NCBI GenBank assembly: GCA_026390695.1
Contig: JAPLFL010000103.1
Coordinates: 8,963-72,962 of the forward strand
Direction of reading: 5' to 3'
From: Candidatus Kapaibacterium sp.
Lineage (GTDB): Bacteria; Bacteroidota; Ignavibacteria; Kapaibacteriales; UBA2268
Length of the DNA: 64,000 nt
Shown here: positions 1,978-47,300 of the stretch, in pieces
Layout of the letters: each line of letters starts with the position of its first letter
Position numbering within the stretch: the stretch's first letter is position 1
Position numbers and translations under genes: made by a program
Notes under the pieces: generated by a model
Told to the model about the DNA's origin: nothing
What the model saw: the letters and a program-made list of their open reading frames with translations, nothing else
The model's database searches: none

Positions 1978-2162
1978 TGGAGACAGACAATAGTAAATCG
2001 AACAAGCGTAATAAGCTGCTAAATGGCAAATATCCTCAGATCATAGAACATGGCAAGAAATATGCCTGTTATCCTGAAAGAACGTCCATTAATGGCAGAT
2101 TTAGCAGCTTAAAGAACTACGGCAGACGTAAACCCGTAACAGTCAGGAAAAGGCGGTTATGA
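1977..2162 (+). CDS. Small basic hypothetical protein
   Basis: GTG ORF overlapping both neighbours, consistent with translational coupling; no motif. Confidence 0.4.
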   Translation: METDNSKSNKRNKLLNGKYPQIIEHGKKYACYPERTSINGRFSSLKNYGRRKPVTVRKRRL

Positions 2163-2989
2163 TGGAAAAAGAAGAAGTTAAGTATTTTAATTTTCCTATT
2201 CAGTTACTCAGTGGATTTTTAGAGGATAGTAAAACAGCATTATATAATATTTTAACCTATGGAATTTATTCCTTTGCAGTTGATTATAATGAGGCAGAAA
2301 CCATTGAGAAAAAAATTAAGGCAAGTACAGATTATCATAATGTAAAACTTGGCAATATTCCGAACACAATAAAGCTCGGAAAAGATCTGTACGACAAATT
2401 TCATAAGGGGAGTCCAATGAGTGGAATAGAGTTGAAAGTATTCTGGACTTATTATGACGAGTATAAAGATGAGACTTTGCCTAAGAAGTCCGATTTTGAA
2501 AAGGTCTGTCTATTAGGATTCTTAGCTTTAAAATCAATACTTGGTGAAAAACCTTATTGCCATGTTTTTAATGATTATTGGCTTGCACGTATGGACGGAA
2601 AAGTAAAAAGAATATACGATGTTAATGAACTATCAGAAAAAATCAGACCTTATCACTCTGAAAGAAATCCAAGAAAAATAAAAACGGAACTGGCAGCAAA
2701 ATGGAATTTGAAACACTATTCCAAAAAAGGAATGAGAGGATTCTATGTAAGTTTAGAGCCCAAAATGACCACTAAAGATTTAATTAAGCAAGTAATGATT
2801 AGGAAAAATAAATCTATACTTGAAAAAAAGATGGGTAACAATCAGATCAAAAAGTATGAAGAAGAAATTTTGCAAGAATTAAATTTCATGCCAACGATCA
2901 AACAATCATCATCAAACAAAAACCAGTCAGTAGCTCCACCGGAAATTAATGATATTTCTTTTCCTGACTGGAATGATCCTTTTGCATAA
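2159..2989 (+). CDS. Hypothetical protein, candidate replication initiator of the element
   Basis: 276-aa ORF (KYFNFPIQLL...ALKSILG.KPYC...WNLKHYS...RGFYVS) located just upstream of the iteron cluster. The function is inferred from position only. Confidence 0.6.
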   Translation: MMEKEEVKYFNFPIQLLSGFLEDSKTALYNILTYGIYSFAVDYNEAETIEKKIKASTDYHNVKLGNIPNTIKLGKDLYDKFHKGSPMSGIELKVFWTYYDEYKDETLPKKSDFEKVCLLGFLALKSILGEKPYCHVFNDYWLARMDGKVKRIYDVNELSEKIRPYHSERNPRKIKTELAAKWNLKHYSKKGMRGFYVSLEPKMTTKDLIKQVMIRKNKSILEKKMGNNQIKKYEEEILQELNFMPTIKQSSSNKNQSVAPPEINDISFPDWNDPFA

Positions 2990-3038
2990 TCAAAAAAATC
3001 AAATCAAATTATTTATTCAAATTTAAGAAAGTTTTAAA

Positions 3039-3287
3039 ATGGAATTAAGTGAACAAGCCAAAGCAGCAAAAAGGCAATATGCCAAAGAATGGAGACGAAA
3101 CAATCCTGAAAAAGTGAAAGAATATTCCAATAGATTTTGGGAACGTCGAGCCGAAAATTTTTCCATTGAGCAAAAAGCAAGGAATTTAAAAGCCGATGGA
3201 ATGACTCAAAGAGAAATTTCTAAGGCTCTAAATATTTCACTTGGACTTGTAAATAAGTACGTGAACAAGCGTGAACATGAATATTGA
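3039..3287 (+). CDS. Small protein with C-terminal helix-turn-helix
   Basis: GMTQREISKALNISLGLVNKY HTH, with a basic N-terminus (RQYAKEWRRNNPEKVKEY). Confidence 0.75.
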   Translation: MELSEQAKAAKRQYAKEWRRNNPEKVKEYSNRFWERRAENFSIEQKARNLKADGMTQREISKALNISLGLVNKYVNKREHEY

Positions 3288-3462
3288 TTTGTCGAACAAG
3301 CGTCGAACAAGTTGTCGAACTATATAAAGCGTCGAACAAGTTGTCGTTAGTAGTGTCGTTAGTAGTGTCGTTAGTAGTGTCGAACTATATAAATCTTATT
3401 CTTATAAATATTATCTTATAAATATTATCTTATACACTTGTTCAATTTTAAAAAAATTGAAC
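3261..3462. repeat. Iteron-like direct repeats, AT-rich repeats and a hairpin: putative replication origin
   Basis: GTCG cores at 3291, 3302, 3314, 3331, 3343, 3355, 3367 and 3379. GTCGTTAGTAGT x3, CTTATAAATATTAT x2, and the hairpin GTTCAATTTT-aaa-AAAATTGAAC (3440-3462). Confidence 0.7.
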
Positions 3463-3520
3463 GTGTGAGTTTTTTTAGAAATGAATTTGAAATCTATTTT
3501 GCAATTAATCAGAGGATAAA

Positions 3521-3943
3521 ATGAAATACTCAAAAGCAATCACTGAATCAATAGTGATGGAACTGAGACAAGGAAATGGCAGAGTAAGAACCTGTAAAGC
3601 AGTTGGAATTACTCACGAAACTTTTATGAATTGGATTACAAAATATTCCGAGTTTTCCGACACTATAAAAAAAGCAGAGAAAGCCGGTATTATGTTAAAG
3701 AAAGAAGAAGCCGAACAATGTATCCGAGAGGCACAAAAAAAGCAATGGCAAGCCGCCGCTTGGTTTTTAGAGCGTAAATTTCCAAAAGAGTACGGACGTA
3801 AAGAAAATATTGAGATGCACGGAAATATGAAGAACGATATAAAAATGAATATGCCAATATTATCACCTGTACCACAAACTGAAGAAGAAATGGAACTGAA
3901 AGATAGATTACTGGTATTGATGGAAAAAAATAGAAATAACTAA
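3521..3943 (+). CDS. Terminase small subunit-like protein
   Basis: N-terminal HTH (CKAVGITHETFMNW), then SEFSDTIKKAE, WQAAAWFLERKFPKEYGRK and the C-terminal strand IEMHG. This is the pattern of phage DNA-packaging small subunits. Confidence 0.65.
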   Translation: MKYSKAITESIVMELRQGNGRVRTCKAVGITHETFMNWITKYSEFSDTIKKAEKAGIMLKKEEAEQCIREAQKKQWQAAAWFLERKFPKEYGRKENIEMHGNMKNDIKMNMPILSPVPQTEEEMELKDRLLVLMEKNRNN

Positions 3944-3952
3944 TTTAAGGAA

Positions 3953-4339
3953 ATGATCATGCAAAAAGAATCACAAAACACACAGATAATCACAAATAGA
4001 AAAATATTCATTGACAATGCTGAATTAATCAATAGTACAGTATTGCAAATTATTTCAGAACATGATGGAAATAGAATGCCAAGTCTGAAGGAAATTTCCG
4101 AACGAACGGGACTTCATATAAACACAGTATCTAAGCACTACAAGAAATTAAAATTTGAGCCGAAAATAAGTCCGGTACGTTCATTATCTCCAATAGTGAT
4201 TTACAATATTTTCAACCTCACGAAAACAAGCGTCTCTGCCTGTGCTCTGTGGTTTAAAATCATAGAAGGGTGGGTGGAACGTGCTGAAGTTGAACATTCA
4301 GGAACTATTGTTGTACAATTGCCAAAAGAATTAGAATAG
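3953..4339 (+). CDS. HTH protein with TerS-like C-terminus
   Basis: PSLKEISERTGLHINTVSKHY HTH; ends WVERAEVEHSGTIVVQLP, where EVEHSG is typical of TerS oligomerisation strands. Confidence 0.55.
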   Translation: MIMQKESQNTQIITNRKIFIDNAELINSTVLQIISEHDGNRMPSLKEISERTGLHINTVSKHYKKLKFEPKISPVRSLSPIVIYNIFNLTKTSVSACALWFKIIEGWVERAEVEHSGTIVVQLPKELE

Positions 4340-4350
4340 GGAGCTATTTT

Positions 4351-4710
4351 CTATGAGTTCACTATTTTTATTAATTTTTTTTGTTCTTCAGACAAAGAAC
4401 TATACAGTTCCTCAGCTGAGTATTTTTTACCATCAGAATCAACACCACTTTGCATTTTTTTTGCAAAGCTGTAATCAGATTGGTTAATAATTTCAAAATA
4501 CTCTTTTAAGGATATACCTAATGTTTTTGGGTCAGTAATCGGAATTGAACTTTGCATTTTGTCTGCAAAACTGTAATCTGATTTGATCATCATTTCTTGC
4601 ATGGTTAATAATTTACCTTCAGGTTCTTTCATTCCACCTTGCATTTTATCGGCAAAACTATAATTCTTTTCGCTTGCCTGTATTCTTTTTCTCTGTTCTT
4701 CAGTTAGCAT
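4351..4710 (-). CDS. Hypothetical protein with three (S)DYSFA(D/K)KMQ repeats
   Basis: NYSFADKMQ, SDYSFADKMQ and SDYSFAKKMQ within 119 aa; convergent with the TerS-like genes. Confidence 0.7.
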   Translation of the reverse strand: MLTEEQRKRIQASEKNYSFADKMQGGMKEPEGKLLTMQEMMIKSDYSFADKMQSSIPITDPKTLGISLKEYFEIINQSDYSFAKKMQSGVDSDGKKYSAEELYSSLSEEQKKLIKIVNS

Positions 4711-5027
4711 AATTTTTCTTTCAGTTATTCAGTACCTCTTAACAACTGGACTGTCATTATTTGACGGTCTTATAGTTTTTTTATTTGAAATCCTTCAAAC
4801 ATGGCTCCCTATGCTGCTAATGAGTGCCTTACACAAATACGTTTTAACGTACTTTTATGCTGCAAGGCATAATTAGCACCCTTAACCATATATTAAATAT
4901 GAATTTAGCAGCTTAAAACCCTTCACTAAGAAGTGAAATTAAGATGAGAAATTCAATCATTAATTTTCATCAATTAGGTTTGACAACTGATCATAAATCA
5001 GACCTAAAAAATATCTAAAATAGTTCA

Positions 5028-5048
5028 TTCCGTTCTATTTCCGTTCTA
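5028..5048. promoter_or_regulatory. Putative integrase arm-type binding sites
   Basis: TTCCGTTCTA at 5028 and 5039 (11-bp period), about 60 bp from the tmRNA 3' end. Confidence 0.45.
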
Positions 5049-5105
5049 ATCTGTTTTTACGTACCTGAAAAAGCAGAGCCAGTGCAGGAAATAATTTTTG
5101 TCAAG

Positions 5106-5467
5106 TGGAGATGGCGGGAGTCGAACCCGCGTCCAAAGTGCCTCTTTCGTAGCTTCTACATGTTTATTTGATCTATAATTTCCCGCCTTCGATTCTGCCG
5201 ATCAACAGGCACTCGAACGCTAACAAGTGTGATTTCTCAAAGCAAGTCCACCCGTGAAACTTACTCCCAGCCTATCTTAAAGCGACACCTCAGTCAAAAC
5301 CGATAGGTAAACCCTGCCTGAGATGTGGCCGGTAAACTTAATTAAGCAGCCATTGCATAGTTATAGTTGTCATTTTTTGTATCAGCAGTTGAATTTACGT
5401 GCGCCACCGCTTAAGCACGACATGCCACTTACGACCTCGTCCACCCTGTCGAAGCCATTTCATCCCC
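5106..5467 (-). ncRNA. ssrA: tmRNA (SsrA)
   Basis: The minus strand starts GGGGATGAAATGGCTTCGAC and ends GGACGCGGGTTCGACTCCCGCCATCTCCA. The internal tag ORF ends in YAMAA-TAA. Confidence 0.97.
5342..5386 (-). other. tmRNA tag reading frame, (A)ADTKNDNYNYAMAA*
   Basis: GCT GAT ACA AAA AAT GAC AAC TAT AAC TAT GCA ATG GCT GCT TAA. The resume codon is inferred from the upstream TCAACT. Confidence 0.75.
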
Positions 5468-5713
5468 GAATGAGTTGAAAGTTTATAAAGTTCATAAAGT
5501 TTATGGTTGATTTTTATTAATTTATGAGTTTATTTATTTCAATTCAAAATGGATATTTTATTCCTTGTTTGAAACTTAAAAACATGATGAGAGACAATTA
5601 GTAGGCCTACTGTAGCTCAGGCATACTTGTCAATATAATTTCTCAATTTCAAAAGGATTTAATATATTAATTTTAACAACTTTCAAAGAACTAATATCTA
5701 TAAACGAATCTTA

Positions 5714-6499
5714 TTAAAATTTATTTTTAATATGCCACATTATTTTTTCAATTCTTTTTATCATTGAGCGTTTTATTCGGCTGTTCGATTTCCTTGTACT
5801 TTCTAAAATCATGGGATAATCCGAATCAGGATATAAATTTTCCAATCCTTTACCAAATTGTGAAGGATCTCGAAATGCTTTTAAGCCGTATTTTTTTGTT
5901 AATAAACTAAATATTGATAAATCATGTCGATGCTCAATAAATTCCGGATATTCTTCAAGTCCACAAGAATTTAATTTATCGGTAATTATCCTTTCATCAC
6001 ATGCAAAATTCAGGAATTCATTTATGAATCTTGTCGAGAAATCAGTTTTTTTTATCAAATTATATCCGGCTAATCTTTGAAAAGATTCTGTATATTTTGG
6101 TTCATCGCAATCCATCAGTACAAGGGCATCTCGTTTTGTATATTGCTTTTCCATAAATCTGAGTTCGAAAGGAATAATATCCTGTTTTTCTCTTTTCTGC
6201 AATTCTATCAGTGGATCAATCGAATTTACAAAAATCGATCCTGAATCTGCATAAAACAAATAATCAGCTTCACCGATTAAATCCAATGCTTTTCTGATAA
6301 TGTATGGCTTCCACAGCCAATAACCTCCACCACGTGAATAACCTAAAATCTTTTTATTCTTTTCTTTAAATTCGGAATCAATATCATCAGGTGAATATTC
6401 AATAACTTTATCAAATCCAGCGATCTCATATCCGGTTGTAGTATTTAATTGCTGAGCTTTAGTAAAATTTTTATCAGAATAATTTATCAGTAATTTCAT
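5714..6499 (-). CDS. Glycosyltransferase-like protein
   Basis: RGGGYWLWKPYII, FYADSG (DxD-like) and EHRHDLSIFSLL motifs. Confidence 0.6.
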   Translation of the reverse strand: MKLLINYSDKNFTKAQQLNTTTGYEIAGFDKVIEYSPDDIDSEFKEKNKKILGYSRGGGYWLWKPYIIRKALDLIGEADYLFYADSGSIFVNSIDPLIELQKREKQDIIPFELRFMEKQYTKRDALVLMDCDEPKYTESFQRLAGYNLIKKTDFSTRFINEFLNFACDERIITDKLNSCGLEEYPEFIEHRHDLSIFSLLTKKYGLKAFRDPSQFGKGLENLYPDSDYPMILESTRKSNSRIKRSMIKRIEKIMWHIKNKF

Positions 6500-6644
6500 A
6501 ATTATTAATTAGTATTAGATTTATACGACAACTTACAAGCTTCTGTTCGGAACTGTATTGAGTATGCTTCTAACTTGCTAAAGTTTAGTACAAAAATATT
6601 TTTCCATTATTTATCATTAACCTTTAACCATGCATAATTGACAA

Positions 6645-8021
6645 TCATTTCTTAAGTATAATAAATTCCGTTCTCCGGTTTTGAGCTCTTCCTTCATCAA
6701 GTTTGTTATCAGCTATCGGTTGCTTTTCACCAAAGCCTTTTGAACTTATTCTTGCAGCGGAAATACCTTTATTAACAAGATATTTTTTAACAGCATCGGC
6801 TCTTCGCTGTGAAAGTCTCATATTATATTCTTCATCAGGAGAATTATTTACATTATCAGTATGACCACGAAGCTCGACTTCCATATTAGGATATGATTTC
6901 ATTAGGACAAAGAAATTATCTAATATCGGATTGCTCTCTTTGCTAAGATTTGCCTTATCAAATTCAAATACAACCGGTAATAAACAAACAGTTCCGATAT
7001 CCGGTAAATTATTATAATTTGCGATGGCAATTATTGTTGTATCGGGATAGCAGAATTTCAATGTCAGAGTATGAATCCCAAACTCCTCCGGGCGATATTC
7101 TATCTGGTAATAAGTTCTTAATCGAAAGTAAATATCATCAAACATCTTTGGAAATTCTTCTGTTCTGTAAATATGACGATAAACCCCGCCGCTTGCCAAT
7201 GCAAATTGATTCATATAACCATAATTGATTCCATCACAGAAATCAACTGCATTTATTGATACATTCTTTATAATAGCAAGTTTAATAACAGAATCCTTTT
7301 GAACCGTGGAACTGTTATCAAAGCCATCAGTAAATACAACAACTGCTTTTGTGATTCCTGCAGGCACAGCATCTAACGAATTAATTCCTTCAATTATTCC
7401 ATTTGATATTGCGGTCATTCCACCATAATTTTCCAGACCATTTTTTTGAAATCCGGTTTTAAGTTCATTCTGATTCTGAGTTGCTTTCAACTCAGTTACG
7501 ATATGGTTATCATATTTGATAATTGAATAATAGTCTCTCGGATATTTTTTTTCGATCAATGCTCCAATGGCTTTCTGAACCTCATTAGCACGCCATTGAC
7601 CCATCGACCCGCTATGATCCAAAACGAAGGCAACAGCAATTGTCTGCTCTTCTGCATCAGATTCGCGTAAAATATAATTATTGATTTCCTTTGATTTGCC
7701 ATTAAATTCATCAAAAAATCCGCACCAATTTTTTTTAAAACCTTTACCAGCTGCATCGCTCAGATAGTATTTATTGGAATCCGTCAGATGAACTCTCACC
7801 TTTATCTTCATTGGCTCATGGCTGATAATCTGACTAAGCTCAATCCCCGGTGCTTTCTCTTTACCACTGAATGGAATACTTGTATAAATAAAAGTTGGAT
7901 TATAATCTTTAGGTGGAACTGCATCATTGGTGATTTCGGTCTCACTCTTCTCTTGTAAAAAGCTGCATGAATTTATTAAAAAGGTAGCGCATAAAAGCAG
8001 GATAGTCTTAGTTTTTAACAT
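6645..8021 (-). CDS. VWA-domain plus OmpA-family peptidoglycan-binding lipoprotein
   Basis: Lipobox (INSC), MIDAS DHSGSM, VFTDG, and C-terminal OmpA motifs FEFDKA..GHTD..YNMRLSQRRADAV..GRAQNRRTEF. Confidence 0.88.
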   Translation of the reverse strand: MLKTKTILLLCATFLINSCSFLQEKSETEITNDAVPPKDYNPTFIYTSIPFSGKEKAPGIELSQIISHEPMKIKVRVHLTDSNKYYLSDAAGKGFKKNWCGFFDEFNGKSKEINNYILRESDAEEQTIAVAFVLDHSGSMGQWRANEVQKAIGALIEKKYPRDYYSIIKYDNHIVTELKATQNQNELKTGFQKNGLENYGGMTAISNGIIEGINSLDAVPAGITKAVVVFTDGFDNSSTVQKDSVIKLAIIKNVSINAVDFCDGINYGYMNQFALASGGVYRHIYRTEEFPKMFDDIYFRLRTYYQIEYRPEEFGIHTLTLKFCYPDTTIIAIANYNNLPDIGTVCLLPVVFEFDKANLSKESNPILDNFFVLMKSYPNMEVELRGHTDNVNNSPDEEYNMRLSQRRADAVKKYLVNKGISAARISSKGFGEKQPIADNKLDEGRAQNRRTEFIILKK

Positions 8022-8205
8022 ATATTTTCCAAAAATATTTCATAAGTTCAAAGATTATTAATAATTATTAAATAAACAATCATAAAACGATTATTACATC
8101 TAATTATTTTCTTCTTATGATGTGTTCTAATAAAAAATCAACAATAATAAGAATAATAATCTGTTTTTTTCGTCTAACTAATAAATTAATCAAAATTGAG
8201 GATAT

Positions 8206-8883
8206 ATGAAAAATACATTTTATTATATTTTGATAGCATCTTGCTTTTTAAATATCCATGCAATTGCATGGAATGATCAGACCCATATTTCCGTTGGTAA
8301 AGCTGCCGGATTTAAATTAGCTTATAATCTTGCCGCTCCAGATGTAGCCAAACTCAAAGCTAAAAATATTGAAGCCTTTAATCATTATGTCGATGTTCCT
8401 AAATTTGCAATAATCACAGCAGATATTGTCCGAAAGCAAATTGAAAATTACAATTCTCCTACCGATAGCACCGGTCATCTTTATGGAGCCATTGTTGTTG
8501 CTGTCCGGGACTATATCCGCGAATCAAAACAGGGAAAAAGCGGGCGTTACAATCTTTGTTATGCCGGACATTATATCGGGGATTTGTCAATGCCATTGCA
8601 TAATATGGATTATAATGAGTTCAATAAAAAAAATCATTTCAGCAATGACGATATTATTGAAAGCGAAATTAGTGATAACCTTGATAAAATAATAATAACT
8701 GAAATCAAAATTGAAAACGAGGATGATTTGATAAATGCGATTGTAGAAATTGCCAATGAATCAAGAAATTTGGCGTACAAGCTGGAAGGCGAGCAAAGAA
8801 ATATGACTAAAGAAGAAGCGTACTGGCGGATTTCAAGATCATCAAGCCTGTTCAAAGCTGTATTAAAATTTGTTGGTTTTTAA
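8206..8883 (+). CDS. Secreted zinc-dependent S1/P1 nuclease or phospholipase C-family protein
   Basis: Signal peptide, then mature W-N-D-Q-T-H, APD, NHY and GHYIGDLSMPLH zinc ligands. Confidence 0.75.
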   Translation: MKNTFYYILIASCFLNIHAIAWNDQTHISVGKAAGFKLAYNLAAPDVAKLKAKNIEAFNHYVDVPKFAIITADIVRKQIENYNSPTDSTGHLYGAIVVAVRDYIRESKQGKSGRYNLCYAGHYIGDLSMPLHNMDYNEFNKKNHFSNDDIIESEISDNLDKIIITEIKIENEDDLINAIVEIANESRNLAYKLEGEQRNMTKEEAYWRISRSSSLFKAVLKFVGF

Positions 8884-9034
8884 ATTTTGAATATATTAAA
8901 AATTAATAAAATCAATTACTGAAACTATTACATTGGCTCTATAATAAGTCCAAATTACAGCCATTCCAAAACTGATGAAAAATCCAGAAGAGGCTGCTGT
9001 ACTGGATTCTATTTCTTTTCTTTTGAGAAGGTAT

Positions 9035-9201
9035 AAGATCGTTTCCTACTTGAAAGCTGTCATTTGTGCGTATGCAGGAATCCTCTTCCATGGCGCAATT
9101 GGGGATTCCTGCATTCGCAGGAATGACAAGAAAAGGTAGTTTTCACACTGTCTCATGCGCGGGAATGACAATAATTCCTAATTCATTAAGGAAATGATAT
9201 A
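9035..9201. repeat. Composite MITE/REP locus: outer TA-ended MITE, REP doublet and a GAG-type right end
   Basis: Ends ATCGTTTCCTACTTGAA and TTCATTAAGGAAATGATATA. GGATTCCTGCATTCGCAGGAATGAC inside; CACACTGTCTC|ATGC junction at 9154. Confidence 0.85.
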
Positions 9202-9324
9202 ATCAAGCAAGGGTGAAATAATAAAAGTTTTGATTATATTGCGAAAAATTATTAACTTTGTAACTTAATATTAAATACTGGGAAAAAAGAAAAAAATATT
9301 TCCGATAAATAAAAGGATCATTTT

Positions 9325-10872
9325 ATGAAGTTATTTTTTATTTTAATTATTGTTTCTTCCTTTTTGATTAGTTCTTGTGTTGGAATATTTGCAACTCATG
9401 ATCAGAAGCTCGTGATTACAACTAATAATCCTTCTGCAGCTGTTTATGTGGACAGCACAAATGTTGGTAATGGAGACAAAGTCGAAGCTATCGTTGAGAG
9501 GGACAGACATGAAAAACAATTTATGATGGTATCCGACAGCACGAAACCATTATACCAAGTTGCCATACCTACAAAAACTCATTGGCTTTATTATTTGGAT
9601 TTTCCCTGGATTGTTACAATAATTGGGATTTATGTTCCAATGTTTGACGGCATGATTTCTAAATGCAATGTCTTTAAAGAAAATTGGAGTTTAGACATAC
9701 CGTATATGTATCGTTTTTGGGATTCATCAACGAAAAAAGTGTACATAGATAATGTTTGCCTCGACATTAAAAAAGGTAAAAGTAAGTTAAAATCATTCAC
9801 TTATAATGATTATCTAAAAAATGATGATCCAATCGAGACAAAAGACCTTGATAGTTTGGTAATTAAACACTCGAATTTAGATGAACATCTGGAAGAGATA
9901 ATGAAAAAAACTTATTTTCAGGATTCTGTTCCGAGCGTTTTTATTGATAATATTAACACCTATTACTTTAAAGCTGTTGTGAAAAATGTAAATATAAATG
10001 ATGTCGCTGATAATTACATGGTTATTAAGGGGTATCGTGCTGGTGCTGAGTTTATGTATATGGATATGGAATGTAAGTGGATAGTTGAAGATACTTATGG
10101 AGATACAGTTTATGTTGATTCAATAGCTTCAAAATCTGGTCAAATTGGCACTCATCTTAATAAATGGTCAGCCGCTGTAAAACTGGCTATGGAAGATGCT
10201 CTCGAAACATCTTTGATAAAATTTATGGAAACTACGGCTGTTAAAGAGTTACTTAAAAAAGATACTTTGAGACATTTGATCTTTGATAAATTAACTATTC
10301 CTAAACCAAGTAAAACACCATCCAATATTGACGATGCAATGAAAGCCACTGTGACAATTAAAATCGGGAAAAATAAAGGGCACGGATCAGGATTTTTCAT
10401 TTCAAATGACGGTTATATAATTACAAATCATCATGTGGCAAATAAAAAATTGAAATTAACTGTAATCACTTCTGAAGGAACAGAATATGAAGCCAAGCTT
10501 ATTCGTTCAAATAAAGTCATTGATCTGGCCATACTAAAAATTGAAGGAAAATCTGAATTCGCATATAATATTCCGGCAGAAAAGAATTTCAAAACCGGAC
10601 AGGAAATATTTGCTATTGGTACTCCCAAATCTATCGAATTGGGGCAATCAATTTCAAAAGGAATTATCTCAAGTTTAAGAAAAAATAAAGATTTGAATTT
10701 CCTGCAAATTGATGCAAGCATCAATCGCGGCAATAGTGGCGGTCCGATAACCAATACTAATGGAGATTTATTAGGTGTTGTAGAATCAAAATTATTTGGA
10801 GTTGGGACGGAAGGAATTTCATTTTCAATCCCTGCTTTTGATATAATGAATTCATTATCAATTTCTTATTAG
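9325..10872 (+). CDS. Lipoprotein with C-terminal trypsin-like (S1C) serine protease domain
   Basis: Lipobox ISSC; GSGFFIS, TNHHV (H), DLAILKI (D) and INRGNSGGP (S); no PDZ domain. Confidence 0.88.
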   Translation: MKLFFILIIVSSFLISSCVGIFATHDQKLVITTNNPSAAVYVDSTNVGNGDKVEAIVERDRHEKQFMMVSDSTKPLYQVAIPTKTHWLYYLDFPWIVTIIGIYVPMFDGMISKCNVFKENWSLDIPYMYRFWDSSTKKVYIDNVCLDIKKGKSKLKSFTYNDYLKNDDPIETKDLDSLVIKHSNLDEHLEEIMKKTYFQDSVPSVFIDNINTYYFKAVVKNVNINDVADNYMVIKGYRAGAEFMYMDMECKWIVEDTYGDTVYVDSIASKSGQIGTHLNKWSAAVKLAMEDALETSLIKFMETTAVKELLKKDTLRHLIFDKLTIPKPSKTPSNIDDAMKATVTIKIGKNKGHGSGFFISNDGYIITNHHVANKKLKLTVITSEGTEYEAKLIRSNKVIDLAILKIEGKSEFAYNIPAEKNFKTGQEIFAIGTPKSIELGQSISKGIISSLRKNKDLNFLQIDASINRGNSGGPITNTNGDLLGVVESKLFGVGTEGISFSIPAFDIMNSLSISY

Positions 10873-10908: not shown

Positions 10909-11165
10909 GAGGCAGTCTCATAACCCACAAATATACGAAAGCTGTCATTCCCGCATGCGAGCATGTGTAAAAACTCCTTATTGCTGTCATTCCTGCGAAT
11001 GCAGAAATCTCCTAAGGTGCCATAGATGGGGATTCCTGCGTACGCAGGAATGACATTTTTGTTAAATATGTGGCTTTTGAGACGGCATCAATTGATGATT
11101 TTCGGAAACATGAAAAGTTATTTAAATTTGTAGGTTTTTACACAGTCTCATTCGCAGGAACTGTC
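10909..11165. repeat. Composite MITE/REP locus
   Basis: Imperfect inverted ends GAGGCAGTCTCATAACCCACA (10909) and TGTGGCTTTTGAGACGGCATC (to 11089). REP doublet inside; GAG junction at 10959 and CTC junction at 11149. Confidence 0.85.
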
Positions 11166-11322: not shown

Positions 11323-13344
11323 ATGCAATTATTTATCTATTATTCTATATTTGTGATATTTTCAACTTCTGCTCTGAGTCAGTCGCTTTCTGTATTTAGT
11401 ATAGATACTTCCGCATTCCCTGTAATTAAAGCCAAGTTTTATGCTTTTGATGCAGTAGGAAATCAGATACGTAGCTTATCAGCGTCAGATTTCTTTGTTA
11501 CTGAAAACGGGCAGCCACGAACTGTTTTGGCTGTATCTTGTCCGGCTCCGAAACCACCCGTTGCTTTGTCATCTGTGCTGGTGATGGATCAGTCTGGTTC
11601 TATGTTTGAAGGAACAAAATTAGATGCAATTCATCAGGCTGCTGCAGCTTGGATCAATGCGCTTCCCGGGAAATCGGAATGTGCAATTACATCTTTTGAT
11701 AATTCCAATTATATTATTCAGGATTTTACCACAAGTAAAAGTTTACTTATCCAAAAAGCCGCTACCATCACAGCGAACGGAGGGACTGATTACGATATGG
11801 CGCTGGATATTCCTATGGCTGGTGGTATATGGATGGCAAAAGCAGGGAAATATAAGCGAATCATCGTTATGATGAGCGACGGAGAGCCTAATTTCACACC
11901 TAATACTCAGCAAATCATTAATGATGCACTTTCAAATTCAGTTATAATATATTTTGTGTCACTTGGCTATCCCAGCCTCCAGTGCATGAAAGATATTACA
12001 ACAAAAACCGGGGGACAGTATTTTGAAAAAATTAGTACTGTCGAAGAAGCAAAGCAAGTTTATATGAAAATCATGCAATCTGCAACTGGCAGCGATCCTT
12101 GCGAAATTAGCTGGGTTAGCCAAGTGAATTGTAAGCCAAGTACGATGAATGTAGATGTTAAGGTAAATTCTCTTAATCTGGCTGCTAATGCTGTATATCA
12201 GGCTTCAATCAGTTCTGCTACTCAACTTGAATTTGCACCTTCAACTATTGTCTATAAAAATGTTTTGCCCGGAACAAAGAAGGATACTATTGTCAGGATA
12301 ACGGCGCGTAATGCGGATTTCACGGTTTCGGATATTAAACTTTCCAATTCTTCTGTATTTTCTATTGATAAAAAGAATTTTATTCTGAAGAAAGATTCAA
12401 GCATTGATTTGACTATTAGTTTTGCTCCCACTGACAGCGGCTATTGTATATGTAAGTTCATTTTTGTAAATGATGTGTGTCCTGCAAATTACTATGCCCG
12501 AGGTGGCTTTCCAGGCAAATTTCCAATTATTCATTCGATAAATCTTGTCCAACCAAATGGCGGACAAGTCTTTTTAGCTGGCTCTGATACTGAGATTACT
12601 TGGGATGGCGTGACGCCGCAAGAAAACGTGAAGCTGGAATATAGCATAGACAGTGGTAAAACATGGATATTTATTTCGGACACTGCTTCAGGACTAAGTT
12701 ATATGTGGCATGTTCCGAATACTCCGAGTAATATCTGCTTGGCGCGAGTGACTGCCAAAGCTAATTATGATGATTGTCAAGTTCGGATTGGTAATCAGAT
12801 TTGGATGTGTAAAAATCTTGATGTGGATCATTACCGTAATGGTGATTCAATTCCGCAAGTAACGGACTATAAAGTTTGGGGAACTCTTACAACTGGTGCA
12901 TGGTGCTATTATAATAATTCCGATTCATTAGGAGAAATTTATGGAAAACTTTATAATTGGTATGCTGTTACTGATAAGCGTGGATTAGCTCCTGTTGGAT
13001 GGCATATTTCAAGTGATGCAGACTGGTCAGTATTGCAGAATTATCTTGGTGGTTTGGCAATAGCCGGAGGCAAATTAAAGGAGCAAGGAATAGCCCACTG
13101 GACAGATCCTAATGTTGGTGCGACGGATGACTTTAAATTTACCGCCTTACCCGGTGGTTACAGAAGTAATTATACTGGTAATTTAAATTTTGATAATTTG
13201 ATGCTGAATGCTTACTGGTGGACTTCAACTGGATCAAGTTTTACAAGAGCATGGTCAAGATATTTATCCAATACTTCTTATGAATTGTTTTTTTCTGAAA
13301 TTCTTTATAATTATGGTCTATCAGTTCGTTGCGTTAAAGATTAA
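11323..13344 (+). CDS. Secreted VWA plus Ig-like plus Fib_succ_major (FISUMP) domain protein
   Basis: Signal peptide, MIDAS DQSGSM, MMSDGEP, and the FISUMP motifs IGNQIWMCKNL..YGKLYNWYAV..LAPVGWHI..ALPGGYR..YWWTS..GLSVRCVKD. Confidence 0.88.
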   Translation: MQLFIYYSIFVIFSTSALSQSLSVFSIDTSAFPVIKAKFYAFDAVGNQIRSLSASDFFVTENGQPRTVLAVSCPAPKPPVALSSVLVMDQSGSMFEGTKLDAIHQAAAAWINALPGKSECAITSFDNSNYIIQDFTTSKSLLIQKAATITANGGTDYDMALDIPMAGGIWMAKAGKYKRIIVMMSDGEPNFTPNTQQIINDALSNSVIIYFVSLGYPSLQCMKDITTKTGGQYFEKISTVEEAKQVYMKIMQSATGSDPCEISWVSQVNCKPSTMNVDVKVNSLNLAANAVYQASISSATQLEFAPSTIVYKNVLPGTKKDTIVRITARNADFTVSDIKLSNSSVFSIDKKNFILKKDSSIDLTISFAPTDSGYCICKFIFVNDVCPANYYARGGFPGKFPIIHSINLVQPNGGQVFLAGSDTEITWDGVTPQENVKLEYSIDSGKTWIFISDTASGLSYMWHVPNTPSNICLARVTAKANYDDCQVRIGNQIWMCKNLDVDHYRNGDSIPQVTDYKVWGTLTTGAWCYYNNSDSLGEIYGKLYNWYAVTDKRGLAPVGWHISSDADWSVLQNYLGGLAIAGGKLKEQGIAHWTDPNVGATDDFKFTALPGGYRSNYTGNLNFDNLMLNAYWWTSTGSSFTRAWSRYLSNTSYELFFSEILYNYGLSVRCVKD

Positions 13345-13371
13345 CATAACAAAAAAGAATTATATTTTATT

Positions 13372-13632
13372 TTGAAATGTATTGTAGGTATTTTGATTAT
13401 GTTTATTAATTCTTTGAATTAGTTTATGTATGTTTTGAAATATCTTATTGATAATTTGCAATAGATTATTTATATTTCATATATGATTAAAGATGATTTG
13501 AATTGTCTTATAAGTATTTTGAATGCTCTTAAAGATGATTTGAATTGTCTTATAAGTATTTTGAATGCTCTTAAAGATGATTTGAATTGTCTTATAAGTA
13601 TTTTGAATGCTCTTAAAGATGATTTGAACTAA
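13372..13632 (+). repeat. 21-bp-period tandem array, left arm of a foldback
   Basis: Three exact 42-bp units AAAGATGATTTGAATTGTCTTATAAGTATTTTGAATGCTCTT (13489-13614), plus degenerate 21-bp units upstream. Confidence 0.85.
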
Positions 13633-13642
13633 TTCAAAAGGT

Positions 13643-13890
13643 TAATAAGAGCATTCATAGAGCTAATAAGAGCATTCATAGAGTTAATAAGAGCATTCAT
13701 AGAGTTAATAAGAGCATTCATAGAGTTAATAAGAGCATTCATAGAGTTAATAAGAGCTTTCAAAAGTATAATAGGAGCATTCAAAATATCTATAAGAGTA
13801 TTCATAGTGTCAATAAAAGTATTCATAGAGCTAATAAGAGCATTCATTAGGTTCATAATGATTTTCAAATGTATGATAAGATATTTCTCA
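13643..13890 (-). repeat. 21-bp tandem array, right arm of the foldback, inverted relative to the left arm
   Basis: TAATAAGAGCATTCATAGAG(T/C) x5 from 13643, then about 7 progressively diverged units. The reverse complement shares TGAATGCTCTTA with the left array. Confidence 0.88.
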
Positions 13891-13891
13891 T

Positions 13892-14090
13892 GTCATTCCC
13901 GCGAATGAGACTGTATAAAAACTCTTTATTTCTGTCATTCCTGCGAATGAGATCGTGTAAAAACTCTTTATTTCTGTCATTCCTGCGAATGTAGGAATCC
14001 CCTTCCATTGGCGCATTTGGAGATTGTAGCATTCTCAGCAATGTCAGAAGAAGAATAAATGGAGATTGCAGCCTTCGCAGGAATGTCAGG
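13892..14090. repeat. Composite REP locus with serially nested GAG-type ends
   Basis: TGTCATTCCYGCGAAT|GAGA..GTRTAAAAACTCTTTATTTC repeated at a 41-42 bp period (GAG at 13908 and 13949), followed by a degenerate REP doublet. Confidence 0.85.
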
Positions 14091-14146: not shown

Positions 14147-14177
14147 AAAAAAAAAGGGATGCAATTTCTTACATCCC
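14147..14177 (-). terminator. Rho-independent terminator of the lipoprotein genes
   Basis: Minus strand GGGATGTAAGAAATTGCATCCC followed by a run of T. Confidence 0.75.
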
Positions 14178-14201: not shown

Positions 14202-15023
14202 TTATTTTACTGCTTTGTATCTCAGAAGTACAATATCCGAACCGGTAAAATTAAACTTGGTTAAAGTCTGTCCGAGAACAGTTATCGGAATTGAGATTGA
14301 TGGGGTGTGAACACGGACCATTCCTATTTCCGAATTCATGTAATGATGAACTTGTATTGTAAAGACTAATGGAACGGGGAATGTCAATCCTAAATAAACA
14401 ACGGTTGCTGTACCGCTAAAAATAAATTGAGTTGTGAAATCTTCGCACAGTGCGGATTTTGCTTCGTTTTCTCCGTAATTCACAGTCACAGACGGGCTTT
14501 TGAACATTCTCATTGTATATTTACCATCTACAGTTGCAGTGGAACCGTTGAATGGGATTTGCAAGCCTTTGATGGTCGTATCAATTAATTTCCATGCTGT
14601 ATCCATTGGATTTGTTGACGCCAATTTGGAGAAACCACCTGCTACAGGGAGTGGAATAGGAAATCCCATTATATTGGTTGTGCCGGGGTATAAATATTCA
14701 TTATTGCAGAAGAGTGAGTCTTTTGCCATGGTATAAAATGCTGAAGAATCGGATATACCGGTCATTCCTGAGGTTTGCATTCTTGATATGATCCGCGTTC
14801 CAACTGTATCCCGTCTGATAACAACAAGAGAATCCTGAGCAAAGCTATCAGTTCTCTTGTTTAAAGTATCAAGATTATAATGTAAATAAGTCCAGTATGA
14901 TCCTTTGTTAATTGGGATATAAGTTTTAGGAGCATCGACAGGTGGATTTGTCGTCCCGTTATCGGAGCAATATGTCAGAAAGCCAGCAAGTAGAATGGCC
15001 GCAATTAATTGGAATTTTTTCAT
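14202..15023 (-). CDS. Hypothetical lipoprotein, paralogue of 15107-15916
   Basis: Lipobox LTYC, YIPINKGSYWTY motif, C-terminus LLRYKAVK. Confidence 0.8.
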   Translation of the reverse strand: MKKFQLIAAILLAGFLTYCSDNGTTNPPVDAPKTYIPINKGSYWTYLHYNLDTLNKRTDSFAQDSLVVIRRDTVGTRIISRMQTSGMTGISDSSAFYTMAKDSLFCNNEYLYPGTTNIMGFPIPLPVAGGFSKLASTNPMDTAWKLIDTTIKGLQIPFNGSTATVDGKYTMRMFKSPSVTVNYGENEAKSALCEDFTTQFIFSGTATVVYLGLTFPVPLVFTIQVHHYMNSEIGMVRVHTPSISIPITVLGQTLTKFNFTGSDIVLLRYKAVK

Positions 15024-19194: not shown

Positions 19195-19391
19195 GAGACT
19201 GTCTCAAAGGTAGAATATTTACCAAAAATGTCATTCTCGCGCATGAGACTGTGTGAAAACTACCTTTTCTTGTCATTCCTACGCATGCAGGAATTCCCAA
19301 TTGCGCCATGGAAGCGGATTTCTGCATGCGCGGGAATGACATTCCATTGGAATTTCCTCGCGTTCACACACTCTCATGCGCAGGAATGACA
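19195..19391. repeat. Composite MITE/REP locus
   Basis: GAGACTGTCTCAAA at 19195, GCAT|GAGACTGTGTGAAAACT at 19245, inner REP doublet, and CTCTC|ATGC at 19375. Confidence 0.85.
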
Positions 19392-38968: not shown

Positions 38969-39228
38969 AATATCATTTCCTAAATGAATTAGGAATTACT
39001 GCCATTCCCGCGCATGAGCTTGTGTAAAAACTCACAACTTCTATTGAATTGTCATTCCCGCGCATGCGGGAATCCCCATCCAGTACCAATCAGGAGATTC
39101 CTGCATGCGCAGGAATGACAGAAAAAGATAGTTTTTACACAGGCTCGCATGCGGGAATCCCCATCCAGTACCAATCAGGAGATTCCTGCATACACACAAA
39201 TGACAGCCTTCAAGTAGGAAACAATATA
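38969..39228. mobile_element. Complete three-layer nested element: TA-ended MITE > REP doublet > 131-bp GAG...CTC MITE (39016-39146) with a GCAT duplication
   Basis: Inner ends GAGCTTGTGTAAAAACT and AGTTTTTACACAGGCTC (1 mismatch), flanked by GCAT at 39012-15 and 39147-50. Outer ends TATCATTTCCT and AGGAAACAATATA. Confidence 0.88.
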
Positions 39229-42930: not shown

Positions 42931-45129
42931 ATGCAATCTGCTCAACCACTTTGGTACCCATCACCTGATCAAATTAAAAACTCAAACATGACAAAATTCA
43001 TGAATTTTGTCAATGTGAAATTTGATCTGAATTTTTTAGATTATTATAATCTTTACGATTGGTCAATTGATAGAATTGAAGATTTTTGGGTAGCGATTTG
43101 GGAATTTTCTGAAATCATTTATTCGAAATCATATAAAACAGTTTTGGATGATCGGAAAATGCCCGGCTCTAAATGGTTTCAAGGTGCTGAACTAAATTTT
43201 GCTGAGAATCTTTTAAAATATCGAGATGATAGAATTGCTCTTATTTATAATAATGAAAAAAATGAGAGAATTAGCCTTTCATATCGTGAACTTTACGCAC
43301 AGGTTGCCGAATGCGCTGCGGGACTAAAAAAGCTTGGAGTTAGAAAATGTGATAGAGTTGCAGCATTAATTTCTAATATCCCTGAGGCGATTATTGCAAT
43401 GCTTGCCACGACCTCGATTGGTGCAGTTTGGTCATCAACATCGCCGGATTTCGGATTAAGCGGGATTCTTGACCGCTTTGAACAAATCAATCCAAAGGTT
43501 CTGTTTGCAGTGAATGGATATACCTATAACGGAACAGATTTTGATTGCTCAGAAAAAATCGAAGGAATTTGTTCGCAAATTATTAGTTTAGAGAAAATTG
43601 TCATCATTCCGAAAATTCAATCGACAATTGAAAATTTAATTCCTGTTAATTCTGAGAATGCAGGAATCATCAATTGCGAATCTTCTGTCATTCCTGCCAA
43701 TTCAGGAATCTCCTTCCATTCCACCATAGGAGATTCCTGCATTCGAGAGTGTGTGAAAACTCGAAATAATAACGTATCTGTCATTCCCGCGCATGCGGGA
43801 ATTCCCTTCCAGTACCAATCAGGGGATTCCTGCATTCGCAGGAATGACAACGGAGAAGTTACAAATGACACTGAAGATATGGACAGCAAAAGTAAATTTA
43901 TCTTCTGGAATGATTTTATTGATAAAAATGCAGTAGAAATTGAATTTGAACAATTGCCATTTGATCATCCTGTTTATATTATGTATTCATCGGGTACTAC
44001 AGGTGTACCGAAATGTATCGTTCATGGCGCTGGTGGAACTCTGCTTCAGCATTTCAAAGAGCTCAGCCTCCATACTAATCTAACACGGGATGATGTGATT
44101 ACTTATTTTACGACTTGTGGCTGGATGATGTGGAACTGGCTTGTGAGTTCACTAAACAGCGGCGCAACAATTTTTCTATTCGATGGCTCACCTTCATATC
44201 CGAATATAAACATTCTTTGGAAAACAATTGAAGTTGAAAAAATAACAATTTTCGGTACAAGCCCGAAATTCCTGAGTACATGCCAAAAATCAGGTATTAA
44301 GCCTGGAAGAGAATTTGATCTTTCATCATTAAAAACTATCTTATCAACCGGCTCTCCTCTTTCGTCAGATGAATTTCAATGGGTATATTCCGATGTTAAA
44401 ACTGATATTCGCTTATCTTCAATTTCTGGCGGCACGGATATTATCTCGTGCTTTATGTTAGGAAATCCTAATCTTCCGGTTTATTCGGGTGAGATTCAGT
44501 GCCGTGGATTAGGAATGAAAGTCGAATCTTATGACGAAAATGCAGATGGAATTATAGATGTAAAAGGGGAATTAGTTTGCACTGCACCTTTTATTTCGAT
44601 GCCTGTATATTTTTGGAATGACCCTGAAAATAAATTATATTTTAATAGTTACTTCAATGTTTTTACCGATGTTTGGTGCCATGGTGATTTTATTAAAATA
44701 ACTGATAGAGGTGGTGTGATTGTTTATGGTCGTTCTGACGCAACTCTTAACCCTGGTGGCGTGCGTATCGGATCTGCAGAAATTTATAGAGTTATAGAAT
44801 CAATTGAGGAAATAAACGATAGTATAGTCGTGGGAGTCAATCATGATAATGATATTCGGATTGTACTTTTTGTTGTTACCAAATTAGATATTAATTTAAC
44901 TAATGAATTAATTGTTAAAATAAAATCCAAGATAAGGGTAATGCTCACTCCTCGGCATGTTCCTTATATTATAAAGGCAATAAACCAAGTACCAGTGACA
45001 TTCAATGGTAAGAAAGTAGAATTAGCAGTTACAAAAATACTTAATGGTGAACAAGTCAAAAATTTAAGTGCAATTGCTAACCCGGAGTCACTGGCACAGT
45101 TTGTTGATATTATATCGTTTCCTACTTGA
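42931..45129 (+). CDS. Acetoacetyl-CoA synthetase with an in-frame REP-derived insertion
   Basis: WFQGAELNFAENLL, FDHPVYIMYSSGTTGVPKCIVH, TTCGWMMWNW, ISGGTD and GRSDATLNPGGVRIG; about 70 aa of repeat-derived insert. Confidence 0.92.
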   Translation: MQSAQPLWYPSPDQIKNSNMTKFMNFVNVKFDLNFLDYYNLYDWSIDRIEDFWVAIWEFSEIIYSKSYKTVLDDRKMPGSKWFQGAELNFAENLLKYRDDRIALIYNNEKNERISLSYRELYAQVAECAAGLKKLGVRKCDRVAALISNIPEAIIAMLATTSIGAVWSSTSPDFGLSGILDRFEQINPKVLFAVNGYTYNGTDFDCSEKIEGICSQIISLEKIVIIPKIQSTIENLIPVNSENAGIINCESSVIPANSGISFHSTIGDSCIRECVKTRNNNVSVIPAHAGIPFQYQSGDSCIRRNDNGEVTNDTEDMDSKSKFIFWNDFIDKNAVEIEFEQLPFDHPVYIMYSSGTTGVPKCIVHGAGGTLLQHFKELSLHTNLTRDDVITYFTTCGWMMWNWLVSSLNSGATIFLFDGSPSYPNINILWKTIEVEKITIFGTSPKFLSTCQKSGIKPGREFDLSSLKTILSTGSPLSSDEFQWVYSDVKTDIRLSSISGGTDIISCFMLGNPNLPVYSGEIQCRGLGMKVESYDENADGIIDVKGELVCTAPFISMPVYFWNDPENKLYFNSYFNVFTDVWCHGDFIKITDRGGVIVYGRSDATLNPGGVRIGSAEIYRVIESIEEINDSIVVGVNHDNDIRIVLFVVTKLDINLTNELIVKIKSKIRVMLTPRHVPYIIKAINQVPVTFNGKKVELAVTKILNGEQVKNLSAIANPESLAQFVDIISFPT
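43640..43849. repeat. Composite REP/GAG-end locus inside the acetoacetyl-CoA synthetase CDS
   Basis: TGTCATTCCTGCCAATTCAGGAATC, ATTC|GAGAGTGTGTGAAAACT (43745), and a full doublet at 43779-43849. Confidence 0.9.
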
Positions 45130-45279
45130 AGGCTGTCATTCCCGCGCATGAGACTGTGTGAAAACTTCAATTTCTTGTCATTCCTGCGCATGCAGGAATC
45201 CCCAAAATGTGCTACAGGAAGGGGATTCCCGCATGCGCGGGAATGACAATAATTCCTAATTCATTAAGGAAATGATATA
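45111..45279. mobile_element. TA-ended MITE carrying a REP doublet and a GAG end; supplies the stop codon of the synthetase
   Basis: TATATCGTTTCCTACTTGAA ... TTCATTAAGGAAATGATATA; the TGA at 45127-29 lies inside the left end. Confidence 0.85.
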
Positions 45280-47148: not shown

Positions 47149-47300
47149 TGTCATTCTTGCGAAAATCATCAATCGAGGCCGTCTCAAAAGCCACATATTT
47201 AACAAAAATGTCATTCCTGCGTATGCAGGAATCTCCTTCCAGTGCCAATTTAGGGGATTCCTGCATTCGAGACTGTGTAAAAACTATGAAATTCCAATGG
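47149..47300. repeat. Composite MITE/REP locus
   Basis: GAAAATCATCAATCGAGGCCGTCTCAAAAGCCACATATTTAACAAAAATGTC is a near-exact reverse complement of 11051-11103. ATTC|GAGACTGTGTAAAAACT at 47269. Confidence 0.85.

Follow-up and report, generated by a model that had tools for sequence, protein, structure and literature searches.

A dyad-symmetric pair of 21-bp repeat arrays between two convergent genes of a Candidatus Kapaibacterium genome

In a 64,000-nt stretch of DNA of Candidatus Kapaibacterium, an uncultured freshwater bacterium (contig JAPLFL010000103.1, hereafter the window), two arrays of 21-bp units face each other across a central palindrome and carry two convergent open reading frames whose stop codons overlap on the axis. 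A first-pass annotation of the sequence left two readings side by side, a non-coding foldback element growing from its centre and a sense/antisense pair of coiled-coil peptides. The question raised by this locus is therefore whether the 21-bp units are conserved as codons, as DNA or not at all, and which known type of repeat, if any, they resemble.

Organization of the locus and support for its assembly

The arrays occupy a repeat-filled spacer of 857 bp that separates two convergent genes. On the left, a gene coding for a protein with VWA, Ig-like and Fib_succ_major (FISUMP) domains (11323-13344, plus strand) has its 3' end towards the arrays, as does on the right the gene of a 273-aa lipoprotein that belongs to no Pfam family (14202-15023, minus strand). 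An intrinsic terminator of the lipoprotein gene was predicted at 14156-14177 on the minus strand, and transcription from the right should therefore end before the arrays. The neighbourhood, which encodes the VWA-FISUMP protein, lipoproteins and an aromatic ammonia-lyase, is chromosomal and lies among genes of exported proteins.

Read in a fixed 21-nt register, the left array consists of 13 units in plus sense (13371-13643), beginning with TTTGAA, and the right array of 12 units (13641-13892) in which the left motif is reverse-complemented. The 12-mer TAAGAGCATTCA was found 12 times with at most one mismatch, against 0.84 expected; all these copies are within 13520-13846 and none is present elsewhere in the window. 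Tandem Repeats Finder (TRF) placed arrays with periods of 21 and 42 nt at 13413-13628 and 13641-13847. By the 12-mer count, the TRF result and the register, the opposed arrays reported by the first-pass annotation are real and far beyond chance. Its description of about 12 units per side sharing one sequence holds for the number of units but not for their sequence: the exact 12-mer is carried by just three left and six right units, with a one-mismatch form in three more right units, and the units devoid of it retain only T-TGAA and TTAT.

The left arm begins with six degenerate units of the form TTTGAA....TTAT...... (13371-13496, plus strand), which are mutually identical at only 9-16 of 21 positions. 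Five of these six keep the TTTG start (four of them the full TTTGAA) together with an in-phase TTA/TTAT block, and the unit at 13476 has lost the first block. The left core follows at 13487-13628 on the plus strand, with 3.4 perfect copies of a 42-nt double unit made of TTTGAATTGTCTTATAAGTAT and TTTGAATGCTCTTAAAGATGA (TRF period 42, 100% matches, score 284). The symmetry axis falls between 13630 and 13631, inside a 16-nt near-palindrome formed by the innermost copies (13623-13638; 7 of 8 pairs), TTTGAACTAATTCAAA, which reads as TTTGAAC followed by TAATTCAAA and contains the overlapping stop codons in CTAA. On the other side, the right core (13641-13745, minus strand) is made of five 21-nt units GTTAATAAGAGCATTCATAGA with a single substitution, representing the inverted left motif, and seven degenerate units complete the arm (13746-13892, minus strand), the last of them merging with the spacer half of the first unit of a neighbouring REP-like element. 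Over 13641-13847 the right arm scores in TRF as 9.9 copies of period 21 with 86% matches. The homogeneous centre described in the first-pass annotation is thus found again in the perfect cores adjoining the axis, but the outward decay is approximate only, since the outer right unit at 13830 still equals the core units at 19-20 of 21 positions. Units at mirror positions in the left and right arms resemble each other no more than any other two units do, and a recent simple inverted duplication is on that ground unsupported.

The REP-like element next to the right arm (13892-14087) is separate from the 21-nt arrays. It belongs to the dispersed GTCATTCCNGCGAATG family, of which 27 copies are present in the window against 1.35 expected, and contains three forward and two reverse copies with a 42-nt spacing. 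Its depth in Logan, summed over all contigs, is 2000-10000. Other composite members of the family are located at 9059-9169, 10986-11054, 19230-19390, 39001-39119, 43687-43848, 45135-45247 and 47150-47225. In each composite, one or two 42-nt half units (GTCATTCCCGCGCATGAGACTGTGTGAAAACT....TTTCTT) precede a full hairpin (GTCATTCCTGCGNATGCAGGAATCCCC), which a loop of about 20 nt separates from the reverse copy, and the one adjoining the arrays has one extra tandem 42-nt half unit. Compared with REP/BIME elements, here the GTCATTCC family next door, the arrays are similar in having forward and reverse copies head to head, in the same gap and with a 42-nt spacing; they differ because REP units are G+C-rich, dispersed hairpins, whereas the 21-nt unit has no internal dyad and its motif occurs at this locus only in the window. 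We rejected a derivation of the arrays from these REP elements, since the two are no more similar in sequence than expected by chance and the 42-nt spacing of the family reflects its composite structure.

Independent support for the assembly was taken from Logan unitigs of public freshwater metagenomes (runs X1 and X2, plus X4 and X5). In X1, unitigs cover 13100-13516, 13599-13693 and 13728-13945. The first and the last of these segments are reproduced with the depth of a single copy, which is about 12x in X1 and some 50x in X2, and the 95-nt unitig crossing the axis (13599-13693) has a depth of 14.4 in X1 for flanks at 12. Both repeat cores appear as collapsed unitigs at about four times the flank depth (3.8-3.9 times for the left core in X1 and in X2). 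The left core was also found at 100% identity in X4 and X5, and the same organism was detected at about 2.4x in two runs of a second study, the 42-nt core being present again. The depths of the cores, 3.8-4.0 times the flanks in contigs that cannot resolve alleles, exceed the 2.7 and 3.0 times predicted by the assembled lengths; therefore each perfect core may hold about one unit more than assembled.

The first-pass annotation had named an assembly artefact at a hairpin as what could undo its description. Logan contigs do break around the locus, and the axis unitig is missing in X2 despite a depth four times that of X1. For this gap we suspect that the assembler removed low-coverage links between high-coverage repeats; it could also reflect a genuine difference at the axis. 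Against an artefact, the X1 unitig passes through the axis at single-copy depth, the breaks of the two Logan contigs concerned (L001 and L002) fall in the dispersed REP element outside the arrays, and a fold-back chimera cannot have generated the two arms because they are not identical copies. An artefact is on this evidence barely credible.

Coding potential of the two open reading frames

The two open reading frames and their stops are positioned as the first-pass annotation gave them. The first, MIKDD(LNCLISILNALKDD)3LN, has 49 codons on the plus strand (13483-13632) and ends with TAA at 13630-13632; the second, (MNALINS)n, has 79 codons on the minus strand (13629-13868) and its TAG is read from 13629-13631. 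We judged both to be incidental. The reading as two convergent genes whose products would be small coiled-coil peptides (49 and 79 aa) draws on the hydrophobic a/d heptad pattern of these open frames and on the coincidence of the conserved blocks with the a and d/e codons, but the substitutions between units do not follow codons. Among 17 unique units, the pairwise differences amount to 486, 349 and 335 at codon positions 1, 2 and 3, so that the third position changes least, and single-base codon differences comprise 40 synonymous and 318 non-synonymous cases. The synonymous bias that the first-pass annotation had proposed to look for is thus absent. Furthermore, the invariant columns 1, 4 and 13 are all third codon positions. 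The G of TTG/ATG is retained in 24 of the 25 units and the synonymous TTA never replaces TTG, in a genome with a G+C content of 33%. In the heptad 'g' codon, positions 1 and 2 vary freely and the third base is fixed.

The frames themselves also argue against peptide genes. Two in-frame stops occur, in the frame of the first-pass annotation, within the outer left units that are in perfect phase with the others, and one proline falls inside the supposed coil of the right arm. Over each arm, three of the six frames are open; for the 49-codon frame, two further ones are open on the opposite strand, and the longest open frame over the right arm (91 codons) is on the plus strand, opposite to the 79-codon frame.

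No homologue of either peptide could be found. Their exact sequences are absent from a collection of 15 billion proteins, no relative was detected at E<=0.01 or at E<=1 (including a word-indexed search for the 79-aa peptide) and no Pfam family scored above its cut-off. An exhaustive phmmer search with the 79-aa peptide gave 108 matches at E<=0.001, and the seven that were inspected are other heptad-periodic repeats, for example (SEQNALV)n, (MNTLPES)n, (YNALIHV)n and (FNELISS)n, which share a periodicity with the query and are not homologues.

The codon-position, synonymous-change, frame and homology tests being all unfavourable, the peptide genes proposed in the first-pass annotation were rejected as highly improbable. 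The two 'heptad' frames result from a stop-free repeat unit combined with the central palindrome. The overlap of the stops in CTAA is present on the axis, but its significance is trivial: the two strands of the palindrome read TTG AAC TAA and TTG AAT TAG. The alternative offered by the same annotation, a non-coding foldback, is supported, the arrays being real, dyad-symmetric and conserved in the manner of DNA and not of codons. We consider with high confidence that the locus is a real, non-coding repeat at the level of DNA. Even if neutral, it is a warning case: 21-bp repeats automatically give 'heptad' frames in several frames and on both strands, and palindromes automatically give 'overlapping stops'. 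In public protein sets, many 'proteins' are translated 21-nt tandem arrays, (MNTLPES)n, (YNALIHV)n and (FNELISS)n among them (P0002-P0015 and P0108 in our set), from which it follows that gene callers routinely translate such repeats.

Conservation of the units and its possible interpretations

The mismatches to the majority base were counted per column in 19 unique units and are, from column 1 to column 21, 1, 7, 2, 1, 2, 1, 7, 12, 10, 6, 8, 1, 1, 1, 3, 9, 8, 7, 10, 13 and 10. This unevenness was never reached in 20,000 random redistributions of the mismatches of each unit (permutation p<5e-5), and it persists when the count is restricted to the 13 outer units, whose identity to the majority is only 68%. 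Each unit thus displays two near-invariant blocks about one helical turn apart, T-TGAA (columns 1-6) and TTAT (columns 12-15). Shared ancestry of the units could have partly inflated the heterogeneity between columns. In addition, the 21-nt register does not slip once in 25 units, though the outer units differ at about one third to one half of their positions; indels are expected under neutral decay. These patterns suggest that the arrays are constrained at the DNA level.

The best explanation, to which we give about an even chance, is that of a non-coding, dyad-symmetric phased repeat serving as a curved or protein-docking platform and expanding by slippage next to its axis. The exact two-turn phase of 21 bp is held over about 250 bp per side. 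With two blocks per unit in that phase, some 50 blocks would therefore be aligned on one face of a duplex that is predicted to be strongly curved. Such an arrangement could act as a dyad-symmetric docking or architectural platform for a putative oligomerising DNA-binding protein, and its working mode may be that of iteron or centromere-type arrays without membership of those families. The perfect cores next to the axis would be recent slipped-strand expansions, independent in each arm, the expanded unit being of 42 nt in the left arm and of 21 nt in the right. Growth from the centre, as the first-pass annotation had it, would be compatible with the position of these perfect cores. Against a docking platform, no regulator gene adjoins the locus; in favour of this kind of element is a second Kapaibacterium array of 30 in-phase 21-nt units between convergent genes (L086, see below). 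If the constraint on the DNA reflects a function, the locus would be a large, symmetric and phased putative protein-docking array on a bacterial chromosome.

Curvature was computed over the whole 64 kb in 252-bp windows with the Bolshoy-Trifonov wedge model. According to this model, the most curved 252-bp windows are those at 13567-13630, and the 522-bp locus has an end-to-end/contour ratio of 0.28 compared with 0.79 on average for the background. When the 21-mers were shuffled, their arrays had a similar mean predicted curvature; the curvature is a consequence of the two-turn period of 21 bp itself and is not evidence of selection.

The main rival of the docking platform is a pair of functionless minisatellites, the four other explanations (hairpin RNA or terminator, mobile foldback, peptide genes and artefact) being less likely. 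The tandem repeats would then be products of slippage, and their opposed arrangement that of an inverted duplication which took place long ago in an intergenic gap tolerating repeats; we regard this as possible rather than probable. The locus is unique to this organism within the collections searched, it is located between two 3' ends beside a REP cluster, the copy number of its cores is uncertain by about one unit and 21-bp arrays with arbitrary motifs are common, all of which agrees with neutrality. What neutrality accommodates less easily are the 7-9 near-invariant columns, including a G in DNA of 70% A+T, in units of which the rest differs at about one third to one half of the positions (p<5e-5), as well as the lack of any phase-breaking indel in 25 units and of any particular likeness between mirror-position units, so that a simple recent inverted duplication is not visible. 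Bacterial intergenic minisatellites or VNTRs are likewise built of units some tens of bases long in head-to-tail order, combine homogenised cores with decayed units and, as is probable here, show an uncertainty in copy number; unlike them, the present arrays oppose each other across a palindromic axis, keep invariant sub-motifs and a strict phase in their decayed units, and are situated between two 3' ends and not in a promoter or a gene.

When the locus is folded as single-stranded DNA, one long imperfect hairpin is predicted (-63 kcal/mol, z = -5.7). Together with the lack of a canonical intrinsic terminator behind the left gene, where the right gene has its own at 14156-14177, this fold is compatible with a transcribed element in which read-through from the VWA-FISUMP gene would produce a long imperfect hairpin RNA acting as a terminator, a stabiliser or an insulator between the convergent genes. 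The central hairpin is, however, not followed by a U-tract, the Kapaibacterium analogue in a like gap contains direct repeats alone, from which no hairpin can arise, the organism was found in no RNA run, and Rfam returned only sub-threshold hairpin look-alikes at the locus. We consider such an RNA unlikely.

Two classes of protein-binding repeats resemble the locus in part. Iteron and centromere-like arrays, such as parC of R1 and pSK41, sopC of F and the direct and inverted heptads of the omega protein, are coated cooperatively by small dimeric DNA-binding proteins. They consist of numerous direct repeats in phase, each about two helical turns long (17-22 bp), sometimes in both orientations and with conserved contact positions, to which the 21-nt units without slips and their two invariant blocks correspond; the locus, in contrast, is not accompanied by a rep or par gene and resembles no plasmid or phage sequence searched. 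LytTR sites consist of 9-bp direct repeats with a 12-bp spacer (consensus [TA][AC][CA]GTTN[AG][TG]), and the resulting 21-bp period of direct repeats is that of the locus. They are, however, pairs upstream of promoters, while the 25 units lie between two 3' ends with no gene downstream, and the GTT core would fall in the variable columns 16-21 when it is TGAA and TTAT that are conserved here. The LytTR-like sequence AGAGTTAAT is present only in the right core units of the locus.

Other 21-bp arrays

Searches for the unit sequence in other organisms were negative, whether in genome contigs, metagenome contigs, viral contigs, plasmids or phages, and BLAST, as suggested in the first-pass annotation and here run against all the loci collected, gave no similarity beyond the pattern. 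Synteny was followed through relatives of the ammonia-lyase; the best of them is only 78% identical and a 21-nt array was present in none of 80 loci. No description of such arrays was found in the literature searched.

The one related sequence is a second array on an 865-nt Logan contig of X1 and X2, which shares about 80% identity with the left core along 61 nt and continues as CCTTTTGAAAGCTCTTATAGATGTTTTGAA. Since the depth of this contig, 11.8 in X1 and 49 in X2, is that of the present genome in both runs, a second related locus probably exists in the same genome. A probable second copy is what would be expected of a mobile foldback element (of the MITE or Drosophila FB type) with inverted termini of tandem repeats, and the architecture, in which short tandem units form inverted arrays and a double unit occurs nearer the centre, has the appropriate shape. 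The Drosophila Foldback (FB) elements, which are eukaryotic, mobile and present in many copies, have long inverted arms of short tandem repeats whose unit length also grows towards the interior. Evidence of mobility was not found at our locus, by contrast: there is no second copy within the 64-kb window, no recognisable target duplication, no internal gene, no empty site in any run examined and no similar sequence among plasmids or phages. A mobile foldback is thus quite improbable.

A scan with a degenerate three-unit pattern detected unrelated 21-bp arrays in 8 genomic and 30 metagenomic loci, mostly intergenic and with varied neighbours. Arrays matching TGAA-N3-TCTTA occur in Chitinophagaceae, Paludibacter, Kouleothrix, Gammaproteobacteria and others, but the reversed control motif was found in 12 loci against 8 for the real one. 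The shared TGAA...TCTTA is therefore due to chance and 21-bp arrays are simply frequent; a cross-phylum motif, for which BLAST gave no similarity beyond the pattern either, was rejected. A gene family common to the neighbourhoods of these arrays was not found, the neighbours including a porin, a T9SS-tailed protein, a hydrolase, a methyltransferase, a ligase and a DUF1573 protein. The head-to-head arrangement is rare: an inverted copy is nearby in 2 of 49 loci with 21-bp arrays, and in both of them the units are internally palindromic.

What appears to us the most telling analogue is the array L086:4965-5594 of another Candidatus Kapaibacterium MAG (JAVSMQ010000001.1), where 30 units follow each other in one unbroken 21-nt register between convergent genes. 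Like the arrays of the window, it is intergenic, has an exact 21-nt period, is homogenised block by block and possesses a unit sequence specific to its locus; it differs in being one-way where the present locus is head-to-head. It comprises three differently homogenised blocks (GAACCTTCCGACCGTTACGCT, GACTCATCCGAGAGTTTTGAT and GAAGCATCTTAGCGTTCCGTT) with 11 of 21 columns in common and a hybrid unit at a block junction (5385), and it lies downstream of a gene encoding a DUF1573 Ig-like protein.

A broader proposal may be formulated, which we hold only tentatively and rate as rather doubtful. The locus would be a dyad-symmetric member of a lineage-wide class of cis-elements in which selection acts on the exact 21-bp period and on the face-aligned pair of blocks and not on the unit sequence. 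Its 25 or so phased sites might wrap around, or be coated by, an oligomerising protein, and the chromosome would thereby have an architectural or centromere-like landmark where two convergent genes meet, which is also where the one-way arrays of the Kapaibacterium relative lie. If functional, the locus would exemplify a more widespread and so far undescribed tendency of Ignavibacteriota, Kapabacteria and Bacteroidota genomes to keep 21-bp arrays between genes.

Several other arrays were observed in the course of these searches. Two metagenome contigs with a G+C content of 0.24-0.25 (L102:211-1014 and L119:1936-2740) each contain three short 21-bp arrays, about 350 bp apart, of related units (AAATTCAGGATTTTCTTGAAA and similar). 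Five short metagenome contigs of G+C about 0.31 (L109, L116, L114, L117 and L097) consist almost entirely of 21-bp arrays whose unit is a palindrome (TGAATCT-TCTT-AGATTCA), present in both orientations. In a Bacteroidaceae MAG (CAVHYP010000002.1, L003:3935-4000), three copies of a TGAATGCTCT core, two of them TGAATGCTCTTATG and one TGAATGCTCTGAATG, are 21-23 bp apart and adjoin, by eye, a putative start codon on the minus strand; two of the copies contain the exact 12-mer TGAATGCTCTTA of the window, which was judged to be chance after the control scan. Finally, related 21-bp units of the type CCCATATAAGATGATTCAGGA are found between same-strand genes at L108:4292-4486, L111:1630-1878, L092:9915-10146, L112:630-810 and L085:3514-3691 (G+C about 0.34-0.38), the L111 array being downstream of a BBP2 porin gene, and these units may constitute a true cross-genome family of arrays.
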